A stretch of DNA of 32,000 nucleotides, taken from Schaalia odontolytica (lineage in GTDB: Bacteria > Actinomycetota > Actinomycetes > Actinomycetales > Actinomycetaceae). The number at the start of each line of letters is the position of its first letter. Position 1 is the stretch's first letter. The translations under genes and the position numbers were made by a program. The notes below the pieces were generated by a model. The model was not told the DNA's origin. It saw nothing but the letters and a program-made list of their open reading frames with translations, and ran no database searches. Below, one piece after another: positions 23,310-30,566 of the stretch. The stretch is taken from NCBI RefSeq assembly GCF_005696695.1, contig NZ_CP040006.1:1770001-1802000 (forward strand), written 5' to 3'.

Positions 23310-24341
23310 TTACTTGCGGCGCCCGAGGCGCCCCTTCAGGCCCCCGGAGAGGCTGGAGGCGCCGTCGGCGATACCCGAGGCCGCGCTCTTAGCACCGACC
23401 ATCACGACCTTCGCTTTGCCGCGCAGCCCCTTCTTGATAGTCGTCGCCGTCTCAGGTGTCTGTCCCTGCCTGGTCACGCCGAGGCGATGCCGGTCCCACT
23501 CGTCGACGTCGACGCCGGGAGGCGGGATCTCGCGCAGGTGCTCTTTGAGGAGCGCGGACTGGGACTGAAGGGCCATGAAGGTCAGGCCACTCGATACGAA
23601 TCCGCCGATGACGGGGACGATCTTCGAGAATCCCTTGGCGGCGGTGCTCTTCGTGATGTTGATGCCGATGAGGCGCAGGCTGTGCTTGACGACCGGGTAC
23701 CAGGTGATACTCATGAGGGCGCGCTTGGTCGCGTGATTCTGGTAGGCGGTCTTGGCAGCCACGCGCGCGAACGCCGTGAGGGATTGGGCGGCGCCCCCAA
23801 CCCCCAGCATGACGCCGAAAAACACGGCGAGTACGCCGAGCGTGTCATCGTCAGCGTCTCGGCCGTCCGGGAGGAGATCTCCCCAGCCGTACAGGTAGGC
23901 GAGCTTTTGCATGATCCTCAGCGCGTGCGCGTAGTACTGCATCAGGTCCGCGGGGATGGTGCCGAGCATCGCGAAGCCGCCGGGGATACCCGCGACGAAG
24001 GAGATGGCCGCCGACTTGTTCGTCTCGTAGGAGATCGCTTCCTCCGCGAGTTTGTCGATCTCGGTCAGGGAGACGCCGGCGAGCAACGGGCTCGAGTCGA
24101 TTGCACGTGCGATTGCGTCGTCACCCATGCGGAGCTTGCGCAGCTCCTGGCGCAGGAACTCCTCGCGGTTGACGCGCACGCCGGGCACGCGTACGACCTT
24201 CGCCAGGAACTCGAGAGCACGCTGCTCAGCCTCGCTCCGTTGAGCTGCCGTCAACTCCCCACCGCTTGTTTCACGCTGCAGGTCTCGCCCATCTCCGACG
24301 TTTTCACCATGTGCGCCAGGTTTATTGAGGCTGCCCCACAT
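23310..24341 (-). CDS. EcsC-family-like protein (third, diverged copy)
   Basis: 343 aa. FVAGIPGGFAMLGTIPADLMQYYAHALRIMQKLAYLYGW and a Gly-rich hydrophobic segment resemble the EcsC family. Composition is protein-like, unlike the Arg/Gly-rich antisense ORF 23301..24401. Confidence 0.65.
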   Translation of the reverse strand: MWGSLNKPGAHGENVGDGRDLQRETSGGELTAAQRSEAEQRALEFLAKVVRVPGVRVNREEFLRQELRKLRMGDDAIARAIDSSPLLAGVSLTEIDKLAEEAISYETNKSAAISFVAGIPGGFAMLGTIPADLMQYYAHALRIMQKLAYLYGWGDLLPDGRDADDDTLGVLAVFFGVMLGVGGAAQSLTAFARVAAKTAYQNHATKRALMSITWYPVVKHSLRLIGINITKSTAAKGFSKIVPVIGGFVSSGLTFMALQSQSALLKEHLREIPPPGVDVDEWDRHRLGVTRQGQTPETATTIKKGLRGKAKVVMVGAKSAASGIADGASSLSGGLKGRLGRRK

Positions 24342-24668
24342 GTCATTCCTTTACACCCCGTTGTCGCCTCAGCACTAGGCCTGTATACGCGACAACAATA
24401 ACCTAGTTATCCTCCATGATGGCGCTCACAACACACCGTCATTTAGCTCGGGTGCGAGGACGTCAGGAACGGACATACTCTGGTCGCATGTGGATCCTCG
24501 CTGCTGCCCCTTCAACCCGTCCCACAGGACCAACAATCTAGACACCCAAATCAGAGGCATGAAAATACATACTGTAAGTTACAATTTCACACAATATGAA
24601 CGCCTGCTCCCACGAAGAGAAGTAGCCAAACCACATCCTCGAAGGGCATAAATATTCGGCAACTGGAA

Positions 24669-25445
24669 ATGCTACACGCTACCACATACAGGAAAGCAGA
24701 AATGACAACAATTCCCCCATGCAAAAATGAATCCAGCCTGCACCCATCACTCTCACGCACACAAGCGCTGGCATTAATCCAAGAAGCAACGTCCGCAAAG
24801 AATCTTCTGCGCGACTGCATAACATCTATACGCAATATGAAGTACCTCGCCAACGATGCAGATACAACATTCACACTCGGAAGTATTGGAGTTGAAAAAC
24901 TACTAAAGGTAATTCTAGGCTGCAACACGATAGAAGAATCAGGACAGTGGCCTTCCAAACACACACTCAGCAGGGACTGGGGACACGACATAGAGAACTT
25001 AAATGAAAGGATCAACACCATAATATCAGACAGCCTTCACAGTGGAAGAAGCAGCAACTACACACAGGAACTCGCAACAAAAATTACAACGAGCAGTATC
25101 ATCCCATTACTTTTCAAAAAACTTGCTTGCTACGGCAACTCCGGCCGCTTTTACTACTTAGACATACTCGCAACTGGAAACAACAGAGATAGAGAGGCGC
25201 CACTGAAATTATGGGAAGACCTAGAAGACCACATCACCTCCACAATTGATGAATTCAAACAAATACCAACAGAAAACGCAGAGATAGACGACTATGTCAA
25301 GCGCACAAACAACTGGATAGCAGATGAATTATCTAACTGGTGGTACTCTATATATCGTCTAGCACAGAATGATTATTTTGGAACGGTCGCAAAAACGATG
25401 GCACCGCAACTATGGGACCCTGATCAACATAATCCAAATACATAA
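24669..25445 (+). CDS. Hypothetical protein, all-helical looking, possible HEPN-like fold
   Basis: 258-aa ORF in the lowest-GC block; the true start may be ATG 24702 (MTTIPP). The segment FTLGSIGVEKLLKVILG is followed by SRDWGHDIENLNERI, an R-x3-H-D-x-x-L pattern at 24972-24986+. I recognise no family with confidence. Confidence 0.6.
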   Translation: MLHATTYRKAEMTTIPPCKNESSLHPSLSRTQALALIQEATSAKNLLRDCITSIRNMKYLANDADTTFTLGSIGVEKLLKVILGCNTIEESGQWPSKHTLSRDWGHDIENLNERINTIISDSLHSGRSSNYTQELATKITTSSIIPLLFKKLACYGNSGRFYYLDILATGNNRDREAPLKLWEDLEDHITSTIDEFKQIPTENAEIDDYVKRTNNWIADELSNWWYSIYRLAQNDYFGTVAKTMAPQLWDPDQHNPNT

Positions 25446-25540
25446 GACTCAGATGAATCTAATGACGAAAGCTGAGCAAGATGCGCTAGAACACTACTTC
25501 AACCAACGATTGAACGACAGCAAACTAAATCGATCAACGA

Positions 25541-26614
25541 TCAAACGATAACATCCCCCACATGATACCCAACAAGACTAGTCACCAGCATTAATACCTG
25601 CAAACAGTTCCGCTTACTGAATTGACGCCTCGAGACACCATGAACACTTGCATGCCGCGAATACACCCGTGGAACACTATCACCTTTATCAACCCAAAAT
25701 GCCTTATGCGCATTCCAAATTGGCAGCCAGACTAACCCCTGTCGCAGACTCAGATCATCAAACACATCAGGAACATTCGCCCCATTCCGATGATTAGTGA
25801 GAGAGCGACGCACCTTCGGATCCGGAACAAAACGTCGAATTAGAGTATCAAGCACAGCGGTCAACATCGCTTGAGCAGATCGAACGTAACCAGCCCGCAT
25901 CGCACCAATTGCGTCAACAATAAATGCGATCTCATCACCATCCCAATCCTCTGCGCGAGCTTCAAGAATGCTCACACAGTCTTCAATTATCTGTTCATAA
26001 CACGCACTTAGCACCTGACGCCGCGCAGCCGTATTTTGTGCTCGAACGAGACGCACGACAATGCGTTTCCGCGGCACCAAATATAGAGGAATTCCCTCTT
26101 GCTGGACAAAAGAGATTATTTCATCAAGATTGACCTCTTTGCTACAATCCTGCAAGTTCGAGGGAAGCGAACGCCACACAAGTTGCGAAGGGTCTGACAG
26201 ATTTGCAATCGACTCCACTAAATGGCGTGCCTGGTCTAGAATAGCCGACTGAGCCATTGCAATCTGATTAAATACAGAACTTGCACCAAAGTCACGCAGG
26301 GATAAAGCCACACTAGGCAATATCAGATTACTAAATGATGGAAACAGATTCTCGAATTTGAACTTGTTTACACAAATGGTATTCCTATAAGACTCTATCA
26401 ATGACAAGCCCGAATCATCAAGCTGCCGAAAAAACCGATTTAGGGCATGCACAGTTGCCTCACTTGACACCTGTATCGAAGACGATACAGATTTAGCAAA
26501 TTCTTGAAATGCTACCTTATTCACCGCGTCGCCATACAACCCGAACGCCCGCTTTGCCTGCGCCATCGCCCGCTGCTCGGGCCACTCAGCTAAAGAGGCC
26601 CCCAGATCTCGCAT
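25541..26614 (-). CDS. Hypothetical protein with a C-terminal Rx4HG (HEPN-type) motif
   Basis: 357-aa ORF, convergent with 24669..25445. The helix AFIVDAIGAMRAGYVRSAQAMLTAVLDTLIRRF is followed by YSRHASVHGVSRRQFSKRNCLQVLMLVTSLVGY. R320-x4-H325-G326 is encoded at 25637-25657. Confidence 0.65.
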   Translation of the reverse strand: MRDLGASLAEWPEQRAMAQAKRAFGLYGDAVNKVAFQEFAKSVSSSIQVSSEATVHALNRFFRQLDDSGLSLIESYRNTICVNKFKFENLFPSFSNLILPSVALSLRDFGASSVFNQIAMAQSAILDQARHLVESIANLSDPSQLVWRSLPSNLQDCSKEVNLDEIISFVQQEGIPLYLVPRKRIVVRLVRAQNTAARRQVLSACYEQIIEDCVSILEARAEDWDGDEIAFIVDAIGAMRAGYVRSAQAMLTAVLDTLIRRFVPDPKVRRSLTNHRNGANVPDVFDDLSLRQGLVWLPIWNAHKAFWVDKGDSVPRVYSRHASVHGVSRRQFSKRNCLQVLMLVTSLVGYHVGDVIV

Positions 26615-26985
26615 TTTCTAATACCGCTCACGCATATCTTGCAACTCAAGATTCGACACCACTGTTCCGCCTTCGCTCAGATGAGCACGATTTTGCTCTT
26701 TATTCATAGTTCAATGAAAAATCCCTTCAAAGACCGAACCACGCAAATGTGGAACATCTTTACACTTTGAACATTAAGATCGCAGCCACACTGCCACAAA
26801 TTAGATTACATGCACTTTTTCTCTTTTACCATACCGAAACTCTACTTCATACGTTTTGATTCCTTGCGCCAGTTTAGCTAGATACTTTCGATCAGCAGTC
26901 GCTTCATCGCATAACTGTATGACATAATGATACGTTAACACACAACTATTGACATTTGATGCACCACATCTCATCACAAGGATCG

Positions 26986-27396
26986 TTAATTCAGTGTATT
27001 TTTGACACAATCGACCGTGTAGCGTGTGTGCAGGTTCATCCAGAACCCCGGGGTGGTGCCGAATTAGCGGGAGAGACGCATGGCGGTGTCTGCCGTGATT
27101 CCCCGCTTCCCATGAACGATCTCAACCCCTTCTGGACCCGCGTCGCCCCACCTGAAGCAGATACGCCACTGATCGTTGATTCGGATACTGTACTGCCCCG
27201 CACGATTACCGCGCAGACGCTCGAGGCGGTTACCCGGAGGAATCCGGAGGTCTTCCAGACGGCACGCAGCATCAATCTGGCGTAACTTGCGCAGCGCGAT
27301 GCAGAAGGTTCCGAGGCTACTACCCCTCACCTCCGCCGGAGCCAACACTCCGCAGTTCACGTCCGCGCACGAGTTCCCATTTCTGCGACGCGGCAT
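26986..27396 (-). pseudogene. higBA: Decayed higB-higA toxin-antitoxin locus: in-frame fusion, premature stop and 3' truncation
   Basis: ALRKLRQIDAACRLEDLRIPPGNRLERLRGNRAGQYSIRINDQWRICFRWGDAGPEGVEIV is HigB-like. It runs directly into HGKRGITADTAMRLSR, the middle of a HigA HTH. A TAA at 27064-27066 sits where Tyr is expected, and the frame then continues FGTTPGFWMNLHTRY to 26986. Confidence 0.72.
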
Positions 27397-27856
27397 CGAC
27401 GAATGACACGTGAGTGATCATTTCTCCCGCTTTTCCCTTTGTCATCATATTCAGTTTTATCTGGGCAACTTCCTGGTCAATGACCGAGCCCCAGTTGTAA
27501 GTAGGGTGAGCAGGGATGACAAACTTCCCCGGCGGAAGCACGGCAAGGTCTAACGGTGGGTTTTCGCAGCTCTTATCAGCTCTCTGGCTCTCCACGCGAA
27601 TGTCGTAAATGGGCGCATCCGAACCATTCACCACCAAGATCGCGTACCGCTCCTCCTGTGGAGCATCAGGACATTGAACGCCGACAACTGTCACATGCTC
27701 GGCCTGCCAACGCTCAGCCTCAGTTTCACGCTCCCGATCACGCTTATGCTCGAGCTTCACCACTTTCTCACTCGTCTTCCATGAACCGTACGCGGCACTG
27801 ACGGCAAGCAGCCCACCGACGGCTCCCACCCAGTCAGCAAGTGTTCCCACGTCCAT
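27320..27856 (-). CDS. Small N-terminally membrane-anchored protein of unknown function
   Basis: 178-aa ORF with TM helix LADWVGAVGGLLAVSAAYGSW, a charged linker and a probable beta-rich domain. Its 3' end overlaps the higB-like ORF by 77 nt, so its true C-terminus is uncertain. Confidence 0.5.
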   Translation of the reverse strand: MDVGTLADWVGAVGGLLAVSAAYGSWKTSEKVVKLEHKRDRERETEAERWQAEHVTVVGVQCPDAPQEERYAILVVNGSDAPIYDIRVESQRADKSCENPPLDLAVLPPGKFVIPAHPTYNWGSVIDQEVAQIKLNMMTKGKAGEMITHVSFVDAASQKWELVRGRELRSVGSGGGEG

Positions 27857-28115: not shown

Positions 28116-28487
28116 TCAGTCAAGGTCCGCTAACACGCCCACGTCGCGCGCTGCCTGACGCAGGCGCTTATCGCGTGTCCACAGCGAGACACCGGGGGTT
28201 ACGACAGCACTTGCCAGGAGCGCCACGTCTACCGCGCTGAGTCCCCTACCCCACAGCCTCCGCTCCTCTACGAGATGCCGCACGCCTTGATCATCAACGT
28301 TGCGCACGATCATCAAGCGCTCGAGCGCTTTCAGGAATACCGACCGATTCTTGAGATTCCCCAACGCGAGTTCAGTGATGACACTCTGATGCACGCACAC
28401 CTGGTCACGCTCGAGCAGATCAACCAGAACCGGCTCAGTTTTCCGCAGGTGATCGATCCAGATGTTGGTGTCAACCAGGACTCTCAC
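28116..28487 (-). CDS. vapC: PIN-domain toxin VapC
   Basis: MRVLVDTNIWIDHL, ITELALG and SAVDVALLA carry the PIN acidic residues. The GTG start overlaps the vapB stop (GTGA). Confidence 0.9.
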   Translation of the reverse strand: MRVLVDTNIWIDHLRKTEPVLVDLLERDQVCVHQSVITELALGNLKNRSVFLKALERLMIVRNVDDQGVRHLVEERRLWGRGLSAVDVALLASAVVTPGVSLWTRDKRLRQAARDVGVLADLD

Positions 28488-28678
28488 GCGCGCGCTCGAC
28501 TCCGAGGCGCAGCCTCCGCCGCCGAATCACTGCCACCGAGCGCAGCGAGCTGCCGACCGGTCTCGATGCGAACGAGGAGTTCTACCGCGTCCCGAATCAA
28601 AGCGGATCGCTCGCTGATCCCGGTCAGCTCCTCGGCGCGCGCAAGCAGATCATCATCGAGTGTCACTGTGGTTCTCAT
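28484..28678 (-). CDS. vapB: VapB-family antitoxin
   Basis: MRTTVTLDDDLLARAEELTGISERSALIRDAVELLVR is the typical VapB antitoxin N-terminus. Start moved to ATG 28678, preceded by GGAGG. It is coupled to vapC. Confidence 0.85.
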   Translation of the reverse strand: MRTTVTLDDDLLARAEELTGISERSALIRDAVELLVRIETGRQLAALGGSDSAAEAAPRSRARA

Positions 28679-28760
28679 GCTTACCTCCAGCTTCAGCATA
28701 GCACCACAGTCATCATCATTTGATTCTGATTTTGACGCAGCTCCTAGACCACCCAGCTCA

Positions 28761-28810
28761 CACAACAGCAAAGCCGGGCCACGCTCTCGCGCGACCCGGC
28801 CACTGCCTCG
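28761..28810. repeat. 50-bp direct repeat, copy B (upstream of vapB)
   Basis: cacaacagcaaagccgggccacgctctcgcgcgacccggccactgcctcg is 47/50 identical to copy A, 712 bp away in the same orientation. Confidence 0.9.
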
Positions 28811-29066: not shown

Positions 29067-29540
29067 TGTATCCCCACTATTTATTTTTTCCGTTTTTCGG
29101 AGTACATCGGGAGCTACAACTGCGGACCAGCTCTGTGTGAACTAGATGAGAAGGCGCAGCAGCGAATCATCGACGCTGGACAGTTGGTGCTGCGGGCACG
29201 CGAGCGGCACCCCCAGCGGTCACTCGCGGAGCACTACAACCCGTTATCGATGGACCCAATTCTGCTCAAGGCTCACAACAACTTGGACCGGGAAGTCGAT
29301 AAGGCTTTCGATGTGGCACGCAAACTCACCAACGAGCGCCAGCGCCAGGAGCTACTGTTCGCCAGCTACGGGGAGTTGGCGAGGGGCTATGTCTCCTCGC
29401 TTTCATCAAAATCGAAACCACCAGCAGGGTCGTTCCCCGTGCGGGTGATTTTGATCGGTCCCGCTGCTGGGTGTAGAACCCTGTCGCTGGCAACGCCGGG
29501 AACTATGACTGTGCCCGACGAGAACACGTCACTGCCATAA
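29067..29540 (+). pseudogene. 3' remnant of an MmeI-family (type IIL/IIG-like) DNA methyltransferase/restriction gene
   Basis: The open frame from 29067 reads ..YNCGPALCELDEKAQQRIIDAGQLVLRARERHPQRSLAEHYNPLSMDPILLKAHNNLDREVDKAFD..ERQRQELLFASYGEL. This matches the conserved extreme C-terminus of these ~900-aa enzymes. No upstream methyltransferase domain is present. Confidence 0.6.
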
Positions 29541-29610: not shown

Positions 29611-30465
29611 TTACCGCCGCCGGCCTCGATTTTTCCGTTGAGGAGGGCGTTGACTACTTCCCGATTGTGAAATGGGCCGATGGCGCGGTGAAGAGGAACC
29701 AGTCACCTGGAAGAGATCGATCCAGTCGCTGGTGTGCAATCTGGGAGGTAGGGTTGCGGGGTCGATTCCTCGCGAGCGCAACCATGATTGTGTCTCTGAA
29801 CGTGATGAAAACAACCCTGCCCTTCGGAGAATTTCCCCTATCCCGCGTCCCCGGGCGGTGAAAACGGTGTGCACCATCGCCTGAAAGGCTTTGCGTTGCT
29901 CTATCGGGATCTTCGGGTCACCCACCCGGCGGATCACTAAGATCCCCCCGTCAACGTTTGGCTGTGGCCGGAAAGCAGACCTTGGTACTCGGGAACCAAG
30001 GTGAAACGTGAACCATGGGGACCACTGAGCTGTCATCATCGTGCTTGCACCTACCCCGGCCCGGCGGCGAGCGACTTCCCACTGCATGAGGAGTACAGCG
30101 GCAGTCCATGCCGGCGCATGCAACAACTTTCGAAGAATGGCAGTGGTGAGGTGAAAGGGAATGTTTCCCACAATGACGCAGGGAGTGGCGGGTAACGGGA
30201 AGTTGAGGAAATCATCATGGACCACTTCGACCGACGCCGAGGCGGTCTTTTTTGTGAGTTTGGCAGCTAGTTTTGCGTCTACCTCAACTGCCGTTATTGC
30301 CCTCCCCAAGTGGGATATCGGGTGAGTGAGGGCACCGCTTCCTGGCCCGATCTCAATGATGGGGCCGGAGGTTTGTTTTACAAGATCGACGATGGAGTTG
30401 ATGATCTTGTGGTCTGTGAGAAAATTTTGGCCATGTTCGTGACGGCCGTATCCGTATGTAGACAT
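29611..30465 (-). CDS. erm(X): 23S rRNA (adenine-N6)-dimethyltransferase Erm(X), macrolide-lincosamide-streptogramin B resistance
   Basis: MSTYGYGRHEHGQNFLTDHKIINSIVDLVKQTSGPIIEIGPGSGALTHP carries the SAM motif, followed by VIVGNIPFHLTTAILRKLL. The C-terminal Ser/Pro/Arg tail ..SSQRPPQRKNRGRRR is as I recall for Erm(X). Start set at ATG 30465 (284 aa), with a GGAG SD upstream. Confidence 0.93.
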   Translation of the reverse strand: MSTYGYGRHEHGQNFLTDHKIINSIVDLVKQTSGPIIEIGPGSGALTHPISHLGRAITAVEVDAKLAAKLTKKTASASVEVVHDDFLNFPLPATPCVIVGNIPFHLTTAILRKLLHAPAWTAAVLLMQWEVARRRAGVGASTMMTAQWSPWFTFHLGSRVPRSAFRPQPNVDGGILVIRRVGDPKIPIEQRKAFQAMVHTVFTARGRGIGEILRRAGLFSSRSETQSWLRSRGIDPATLPPRLHTSDWIDLFQVTGSSSPRHRPISQSGSSQRPPQRKNRGRRR

Positions 30466-30566
30466 TAGGTGTGCTCCGTGGAGTTGAAACGGAGCCGGGC
30501 ATGGCAAATGGCCGCCCGGCTAAAGGACCGGAGCGGTTTCTAACCTGCGGGAGGGAGAAAGCCGCC
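30466..30566 (-). promoter_or_regulatory. Putative translational attenuator of erm(X)
   Basis: On the minus-strand RNA, hairpin GCUCCGU-UUCAACUCC-ACGGAGC (plus 30473-30495) buries the erm(X) SD GGAG. There is a second anti-SD copy GCUCCG (30529-30534), a GCCGGGC..GCCCGGC hairpin (30494-30520) and AGCCGC-UAAG-GCGGCU spanning the leader stop (30560-30575). Confidence 0.6.

Follow-up and report, generated by a model that had tools for sequence, protein, structure and literature searches.

The HEPN superfamily is defined by an R-x4-6-H motif with a polar residue (N, D or H) right after the arginine, located within an all-alpha four-helix core at the end of helix 3 or in the loop to helix 4, often in a distorted or flexible segment, and by an acidic residue on helix 2; linkage to restriction-modification (R-M) genes is its commonest prokaryotic context (PMC3710099). 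DUF4209/C6orf70 (ERMARD, PF13910) is one such family; it conserves an R-x4-6-H, and its bacterial members occur in R-M operons (PMC3710099). The anticodon nucleases PrrC and RloC end type I (and type III) R-M operons, with a proposed role as latent RNases backing up restriction, and AbiV (HEPN_AbiV, PF18728) is the abortive-infection RNase of a type III toxin-antitoxin (TA) system. Here we analyse a 32,000-nucleotide stretch of Schaalia odontolytica (contig NZ_CP040006.1, positions 1,770,001 to 1,802,000; hereafter the window), which holds a low-GC cassette with two convergent genes, A on the plus strand and B on the minus strand (Table 1). With a probability of roughly 0.55, we read the cassette as two abortive-infection-type genes, of which B encodes a divergent HEPN endoribonuclease and A most likely an AbiV-like effector or modulator travelling with B. 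B represents a new family of a well-known kind and not a new kind of system, and A an uncharacterised partner family.

The conserved domain of B

An earlier note, made from the letters of the window alone, had described two intact orphan genes with HEPN-like signatures in the block of lowest GC content. Both open reading frames (ORFs), 24669..25445 (plus strand, 258 aa) and 25541..26614 (minus strand, 357 aa), are present with the peptides quoted there, and the low GC content was confirmed, but the word "orphan" fits neither gene. Close relatives of B number more than 230, all labelled "hypothetical", and come from Micrococcus, Corynebacterium, Rothia, Kocuria, Microbacterium, Propionibacteria, Actinomyces and others; an exhaustive HMMER search returned 1,461 representative clusters (50% identity) at E<=1e-3, 281 of them at E<=1e-30. 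The distribution is restricted to Actinomycetota, and all 1,461 clusters match B through its C-terminal ~215 residues. The N-terminal ~115–150 residues differ from clade to clade, with helices predicted there at low confidence; the conserved all-alpha domain begins near residue 150 of the 357-aa frame, so that the unrecognisable N-terminal part is shorter than the ~220 aa first supposed. Divergent copies (21–34% identity) are carried by plasmids of Streptomyces, Nocardia and Dietzia. The Streptomyces plasmid homologs (H3, H5, H8, H14, H15 and H17; loci L012 and L014) often lie ~2–8 kb from the record end of linear plasmids, i.e., in the terminal regions.

The peptide YSRHASVHG, which had first drawn attention to B, is encoded at 25637-25657 as reported. 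When B is shuffled at matched composition, 83% of the resulting sequences contain an R-x4-6-H motif (mean 1.66 per shuffle, against four observed), so in a single sequence it is no better than chance, and it is conservation alone that gives the motif meaning. Of 75 representatives with 23–44% identity to the window protein, 74 have R320 and 74 have H325, and the residue after the arginine is solely histidine (71) or asparagine (4). The same three positions are invariant in four plasmid homologs (21–28% identity) and in 52 close homologs. With the residue that follows, the family motif reads R-[H/N]-x3-H-[G/A]; Pfam describes an RNxxxHG motif for DUF4209. As judged from the sequences, a conserved R-x4-6-H with a polar residue after the arginine is exactly the defining HEPN pattern. 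Beyond it, C213, Q248 and Q331 are invariant in the 75 representatives, and P315 (74/75), N336 (73/75), D212 (72/75) and D256 (71/75, with glutamate in three more) are nearly so.

In the AlphaFold model, the motif forms a short helix (320–325) between two long helices (290–309 and 334–355), and the predicted local distance difference test score (pLDDT) falls below 50 at residues 321–326; such low local confidence fits the flexible or distorted active-site region of HEPN proteins. The helices at 228–240, 244–262 and 334–355 bear out the layout that had been proposed by eye. D256 lies on the helix 244–262, a helix assignment that is inferred, and R or K stands at position 261 in just 34 of the 75 representatives. 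The model plausibly agrees with the helix layout and acidic residue of the superfamily. A Foldseek search against BFVD, a library of predicted viral structures, gave a DUF4209 protein as the top match (probability 1.00, E 0.053) over 262 columns of the 269-residue target, with 12% identity in the structural alignment. In the PDB no match was significant, and the one sensible match was 2q00 (E 4.5, TM score 0.55 over a 120-residue target), a structure listed as PaREP1/8 HEPN-T (PMC3710099). The two libraries independently, if weakly, point to HEPN. Taken with the model, the motif suggests that B very probably has an HEPN-type domain closest to DUF4209, of no named family demonstrably a member. 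Compared with DUF4209, B has its own variable N-terminal region, the extra invariant residues and a restriction to Actinomycetota, and the PF13910 hidden Markov model (HMM) gave no match at E<=10 for B, nor at E<=0.001 for the 75 relatives. A correspondence of B to "MTES_1575", one of the HEPN architectures in the 2013 survey, was considered and rejected; MTES_1575 is an unrelated giant protein.

Genomic context of B homologs

The surroundings of B were compared in 39 loci from species-representative genomes, with gene calls aware of GC content at third codon positions (GC3), and in further loci with precomputed annotation. The upstream neighbour is co-directional in 29 of 32 cases, and the unit nearly always ends with B. 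A complete type I hsdM-hsdS-hsdR operon stands directly before B in about nine loci. In 13 loci the preceding gene encodes a Hypoth_Ymh (PF09509) HEPN protein with an RNPTAH motif, whose stop codon overlaps the start of B by 4 bp, and several of these pairs are themselves preceded by a type III Res subunit. The hsdMSR-B arrangement is exemplified by L010 of Acidipropionibacterium and the Ymh-B arrangement by L008 of Micrococcus terreus. Ymh, absent from the window, is the most frequent partner of B, translationally coupled upstream and R-M linked; we regard it as a partner and not a relative, because hhalign detected no similarity between the two alignments, a weak negative given that the alignment is shallow. 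Single loci have a STAND NTPase or a TrwC relaxase in the upstream position. A third partner class is an unannotated 683–737-aa family without a Pfam domain, found directly upstream of and co-directional with B in about five loci.

Downstream of B there is usually a small convergent gene, which in seven loci is a genuine HEPN_AbiV; the AbiV of L062 reaches E 3.5e-36 in the library in which A had no match. Two further unannotated small families occupy this convergent slot elsewhere, the second of them overlapping the 3' end of B by 32 bp. In L022, L030 and L031, three HEPN-type genes stand in a row: Ymh, B (4-bp overlap) and a convergent AbiV.

Large serine recombinases, ArdA, TIR, Abi_2 and HigBA are frequent neighbours as well. 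The setting of the B homologs is the R-M-linked HEPN setting of the survey. It recalls PrrC and RloC, which likewise end R-M operons as HEPN-type genes, but B is without their ABC-ATPase domain and no sequence relationship between them was shown. The window copy also differs in not being beside an R-M operon, having only an MmeI remnant ~2.6 kb away. The B islands are repeatedly located just downstream of ychF, sometimes after xseA, beside a large serine recombinase (L008, L010, L062, L019, L026 and others), a recurrent position that suggests a shared integration hotspot in Actinomycetota.

Gene A and its resemblance to AbiV

Gene A almost certainly starts at the ATG at 24702 (Met12 of the 258-aa ORF), as read from the alignment, because all homologs begin there and DNA conservation begins there too; ATGACAACAA is conserved and the DNA further upstream is not. 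A single-sequence search found eight relatives, and a profile search more than 213 clusters (90% identity), all actinobacterial. The AlphaFold model has ten helices and high confidence (pLDDT 92.7, predicted template modelling score 0.90).

In 63 diverse members, the E-x3-K element (E65 and K69) with K66, W83, H95, and the segment Y144-G-x-S-G-R149-F are invariant. Helix 2 of HEPN proteins carries an E-x3-[KR] element, and the E-x3-K of A matches the element described (PMC3710099). As described with the crystal structure of Lactococcus AbiV, conservation is highest at E67 and K70, and a flexible segment contains H97 (10.1101/2024.05.05.592566). The distance from E65 to H95 in A, 30 residues, equals that from E67 to H97; this is a resemblance only, with no supporting alignment. 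The pattern of A also resembles the AbiV/HEPN-T variant, in which the canonical histidine is lost, an alternative histidine is found in the insert between helices 2 and 3, and the basic residue is kept (PMC3710099). Furthermore, A is helical, of similar size to AbiV, and located in the same convergent slot beside B that true AbiV occupies in the seven loci above.

The HEPN case originally made for A was a different one. The peptides VEKLLKVILG and SRDWGHDIENL, on which it was built, are present, but the arginine of the R-x3-H in the latter is not conserved in the 63 members, and A contains no R-x4-6-H at all. Single-protein scans of A against Pfam, NCBIfam, PADLOC and PHROGs gave nothing credible, and the A-family profile found only spurious matches (U1A/apolipoprotein type) among PDB sequences. 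The 63 relatives, scanned member by member against Pfam and PADLOC, matched no family, PF18728 and the PADLOC AbiV model included; a sub-threshold Pfam scan of distant members for HEPN_AbiV was also negative, and the A-family HMM scores true actinobacterial AbiV proteins at ~0 bits. One distant member is labelled "AbiV family" by UniRef. A Foldseek search of the PDB with the A model returned no HEPN structure, HEPN-T included, among the 50 matches listed, all of which had E values of 0.2 or worse; the presence of the AbiV entries 9BJ5-7 in that library is not established. No antitoxin-like RNA or small ORF was recognised at the locus; Rfam and tandem-repeat searches gave no match and the DNA upstream of A is unconserved, although a novel RNA is possible. 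With no AbiV model match and ~0 bits, A is a positional analogue of AbiV and not a shown relative, and its HEPN nature is a hypothesis. The proposal that the undescribed defence module contains an HEPN-like effector holds in large part for B, and is unsupported for A as it was argued; neither family is named in the four libraries queried, which upholds the word "undescribed".

State of the locus in this genome

The B allele of this genome is interrupted. In L063/P0001, a copy from another sample, codon 30 is CAG (Gln30) and the gene encodes 388 aa; in the window, the same codon is an amber codon (Q30*), so that the 357-aa ORF taken for an intact gene is the part of a 388-codon frame that follows it. 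The window was aligned with L063 from 23883 to 27169, a full 3.3-kb alignment with 96% identity. Genes A and B together differ at 8 of 1,911 nt (99.6% identity), and the DNA around them is only ~91% identical, which suggests a recent exchange of the cassette or a far stronger constraint on it. Two of the three differences in A are non-synonymous; B has five in 1,167 nt, one of them the amber codon, and three of the other four are non-synonymous. The gap between the convergent genes is 79–95 bp long in all close-clade loci, i.e., those in which A is at least 67% identical. In the window it contains no stable hairpin (fold z-score -0.24), and a promoter/terminator scan found no terminator-like site in its 95 bp. 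One promoter-like site upstream of B (26955-26927, minus strand) is not above chance. Flanking repeats that would mark the cassette ends were sought, and only short chance-level matches were found; tblastn of the A and B proteins against phage genomes gave no match.

These features raise the question of whether the locus in this genome is a non-functional relic, with B a pseudogene, A drifting and nothing expressed or selected, for which we would offer slightly less than even odds. The amber codon, the share of non-synonymous changes relative to the intact allele, the adjacent higBA with its deletion and its own nonsense codon, and the MmeI remnant nearby all favour it, and from Q30* and the higBA remnant together the module is probably decaying. 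However, only 8 differences in 1,911 nt separate the window from an intact allele, indicating that the mutation is very recent, and A is full length. In addition, the ATG at 26614 that opens the 357-aa ORF is one codon past the amber codon; judging by the frame, re-initiation at M32 could still yield B with the complete conserved domain, and the 31 residues lost would belong to a non-conserved, disordered region. A relic would, moreover, concern the state of this copy and not the nature of the two genes.

Coupling between A and B

Within the close clade the convergent A-B pair is always present, though the A-side flanks differ from locus to locus (McrBC with type I R-M, a transposase, or an EcsC-like gene). 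The comparison also covered 80 metagenomic A loci. In two distant lineages among them, with A ~30% identical, a B-domain gene lies directly downstream of A and co-directional with it, after a gap of 195 bp in L119 and of 41 bp in L142/L143; the signature residues are kept in both proteins of these pairs, including the E-x3-K of A. In the latter lineage a 280-aa gene (L142:3927-4769; L143:4144-4986) ends 2 bp before A, and the three genes may form one operon. Several other loci have an ApeA_NTD1+HEPN_Apea gene 75–76 bp after A, and in Kocuria the gene after A encodes an unannotated 453-aa protein, next to GmrSD, a methylase and Abi_2. GmrSD, Abi_2, methylase and SNF2/ResIII genes are present in the A islands. 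The recurrent adjacency of A to HEPN effectors is real, and its numbers may fit functional coupling or the clustering of defence islands alike.

One explanation of these pairs is a single two-gene system, in which A would control HEPN-type effectors as their sensor, as a regulator or as an antitoxin-like inhibitor, and B would be one of several interchangeable effectors, an ApeA-type protein being another. The retention of the pair in every close-clade locus despite differing flanks, the conservation of the cassette far above its flanks, the two distant co-directional adjacencies, and the repeated occurrence of A as the first gene of short co-directional pairs with variable ~450-aa partners, ApeA HEPN among them, agree with such a system. 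We nevertheless think it unlikely. B is absent from most A loci and A from most B loci; none of the 39 species-representative B loci contains an A-family gene. In the window clade the two genes converge, which toxin-antitoxin or sensor-effector operons typically do not; ApeA, a validated tRNA-cleaving HEPN defence protein, works as a single gene; and two adjacencies among ~55 distant loci might arise from defence-island clustering alone. Both families occur in defence islands, and in the loci compared A and B were adjacent in the close clade and in two distant lineages. A type II TA operon was rejected for A-B on the convergent orientation in the window clade, the absence of A from all 39 loci, and the co-directional order being confined to the two distant lineages.

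Could the domain of B not be an RNase?

Sequence profiles count against our reading of B. Single-protein scans of B against Pfam, NCBIfam, PADLOC and PHROGs gave nothing credible, its 75 relatives matched no Pfam family one by one, the B profile produced only spurious matches of the U1A/apolipoprotein type among PDB sequences, and no profile in the four libraries links B or A to any HEPN family. Profile-profile comparisons of B with A, of A with Ymh and with AbiV, and with single Abi_2 and Ymh sequences gave no signal, these being weak negatives from shallow templates, like the hhalign result above. The Foldseek E values of 0.053 and 4.5 are statistically weak, and since C213, Q248, Q331 and N336 are outside the HEPN signature, the chemistry of B could differ. 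These points, together with the constant position right after hsdR or res genes, and also near Streptomyces linear plasmid ends and after a relaxase gene, would suit an all-alpha enzyme of another kind, or a subunit of R-M systems or mobile elements that has no catalytic role and is accessory or regulatory, with a convergent HEPN resemblance; this is improbable in our view, considering that the residue after the arginine is H or N alone, as the HEPN rule has it, that HEPN families are the best or only sensible match in both structure libraries, that B is found together with Ymh, AbiV and, via A, ApeA, all three of them HEPN families, and that R-M linkage is the commonest HEPN context. The HEPN assignment of B made in the earlier note is supported, short of proof, by the family-defining R-[H/N]-x3-H, the all-alpha domain, the structural neighbours and the R-M and abortive-infection contexts.

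Proposed mode of action and significance

From the motif, the model and the contexts we infer that the C-terminal domain of B would be a divergent endoribonuclease of the HEPN superfamily, with a fold closest to the DUF4209/C6orf70 clade and R320, H321 and H325 as a putative active site, probably formed across a dimer. On the analogy of HEPN proteins linked to R-M, those of the PrrC type included, B would be silent in healthy cells, held in check by its own N-terminal region, by the HsdR, Ymh or 683-aa protein encoded upstream, or by another inhibitor. Once a phage infection has disabled or overwhelmed the first-line system, B would be set free to cleave essential tRNA, rRNA or mRNA, bringing the infected cell to a halt. 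A would be a separately transcribed helical protein in the AbiV slot, most likely either an AbiV-like effector in its own right or a modulator of B.

If B is an HEPN RNase, it constitutes a large Actinomycetota-only family missing from Pfam, NCBIfam, PADLOC and PHROGs, tied to type I/III restriction and to three other HEPN families. Such a family would fill an annotation gap in Corynebacterium, Rothia, Kocuria, Microbacterium, Propionibacteria, Streptomyces plasmids and oral Actinomyces-like bacteria, and the hsdMSR-B and Ymh-B arrangements would offer a clean system for the coupling of restriction failure to RNA-level cell suicide. The window copy is itself of limited value for this, because its B is interrupted. 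A, with a confident model, no structural neighbour and a habitual place beside HEPN effectors, is a candidate new regulator. It is a long shot that A has a new fold and acts as a modular sensor or controller of several unrelated HEPN effectors (B-type and ApeA-type), with B, Ymh and AbiV forming multi-HEPN assemblies that back up actinobacterial R-M through abortive infection; if true, this would be a widespread (>1,400 clusters) and previously unrecognised layer of immunity in Actinomycetota.

Features of the cassette and neighbouring genes

Table 1. Coordinates of the cassette, its genes and motifs, neighbouring genes and partner genes at homologous loci (L numbers). Positions without a locus number are those of the window.
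Feature	Position	Strand	Description
Low-GC cassette	~24,350-27,000		~2.65 kb; 38–52% GC vs ~66% GC genome; lowest-GC stretch of the window
Gene A	24702..25445	+	247 aa, all-alpha; longest ORF from 24669 is 258 aa; unnamed actinobacterial family
A E65-K66-x-x-K69 (E-x3-K)	24894..24908	+	Invariant in 63 diverse members; within T-x-x-S-I-G-V-E-K-x-x-K, second long helix
A H95 ("WGH" of R-x3-H)	24984..24986	+	Invariant; upstream arginine not conserved (63 members)
A R149 in Y-G-x-S-G-R-F-x-x-L	25146..25163	+	Invariant; D/N at +5 (R-x4-[D/N])
Intergenic gap	25446..25540		95 bp between convergent stop codons of A and B; no stable hairpin
Gene B	25541..26707	-	Native 388-codon frame, amber-interrupted; longest open frame 25541-26614 (357 aa)
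B conserved C-terminal all-alpha domain	25544..26167	-	Residues ~150–357; AlphaFold pLDDT ~80–97
B R320-H321-A-S-V-H325	25640..25657	-	Family-defining R-[H/N]-x3-H; conserved in diverse representatives
In-frame TAG in B (Q30*)	26618..26620	-	CAG (Gln30) in L063/P0001
AT-rich spacer upstream of B	26708..26985	-	Presumed promoter region; DNA-level conservation in all close-clade loci (alignment)
higB::higA deletion-fusion remnant	26986..27396	-	110-aa ORF, in-frame TAA; HigB-like Pfam match; B-side edge of the low-GC cassette
178-aa ORF	27320-27856	-	Between higBA remnant and vapBC; no Pfam match
vapBC	28116-28771	-	Apparently intact; PIN toxin 28116-28487, VapB/RHH antitoxin 28484-28771, 4-bp overlap
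MmeI remnant	29184-29540	+	118-aa ORF; only the C-terminal domain of MmeI-type R-M enzymes, E 6.6e-16; type IIL enzyme remnant
erm(X)	29611-30507	-	23S rRNA methyltransferase (macrolide-lincosamide-streptogramin B resistance); ~94% DNA identity to plasmid copies
683–737-aa B-partner genes	L016:3395-5608, L018:3611-5662, L029:3485-5536; also L047, L053		Unannotated family upstream of B
Convergent-slot small family, first	L019:6912-7397, L024:6895-7599, L035, L052		Unannotated, after B
Convergent-slot small family, second	L032:6875-7411, L033, L036, L051		Unannotated, after B

The neighbourhood is that of a defence and TA island, as had been supposed, with the higBA remnant, vapBC and the MmeI remnant. 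The 110-aa "HigB" ORF was rejected as an intact toxin: it is a fusion remnant in which higB is joined to the second half of higA, and its C-terminus matches the intact HigA of L005. There, an intact 72-aa HigA occupies the same position (L005:7503-7721), and higA also has a stop codon in L001 and L003. Defence, TA and resistance genes thus form a mosaic in this island, part of which is decaying. The plasmid copies of erm(X) with ~94% identity are from Corynebacterium, Trueperella, Glutamicibacter and Cutibacterium.

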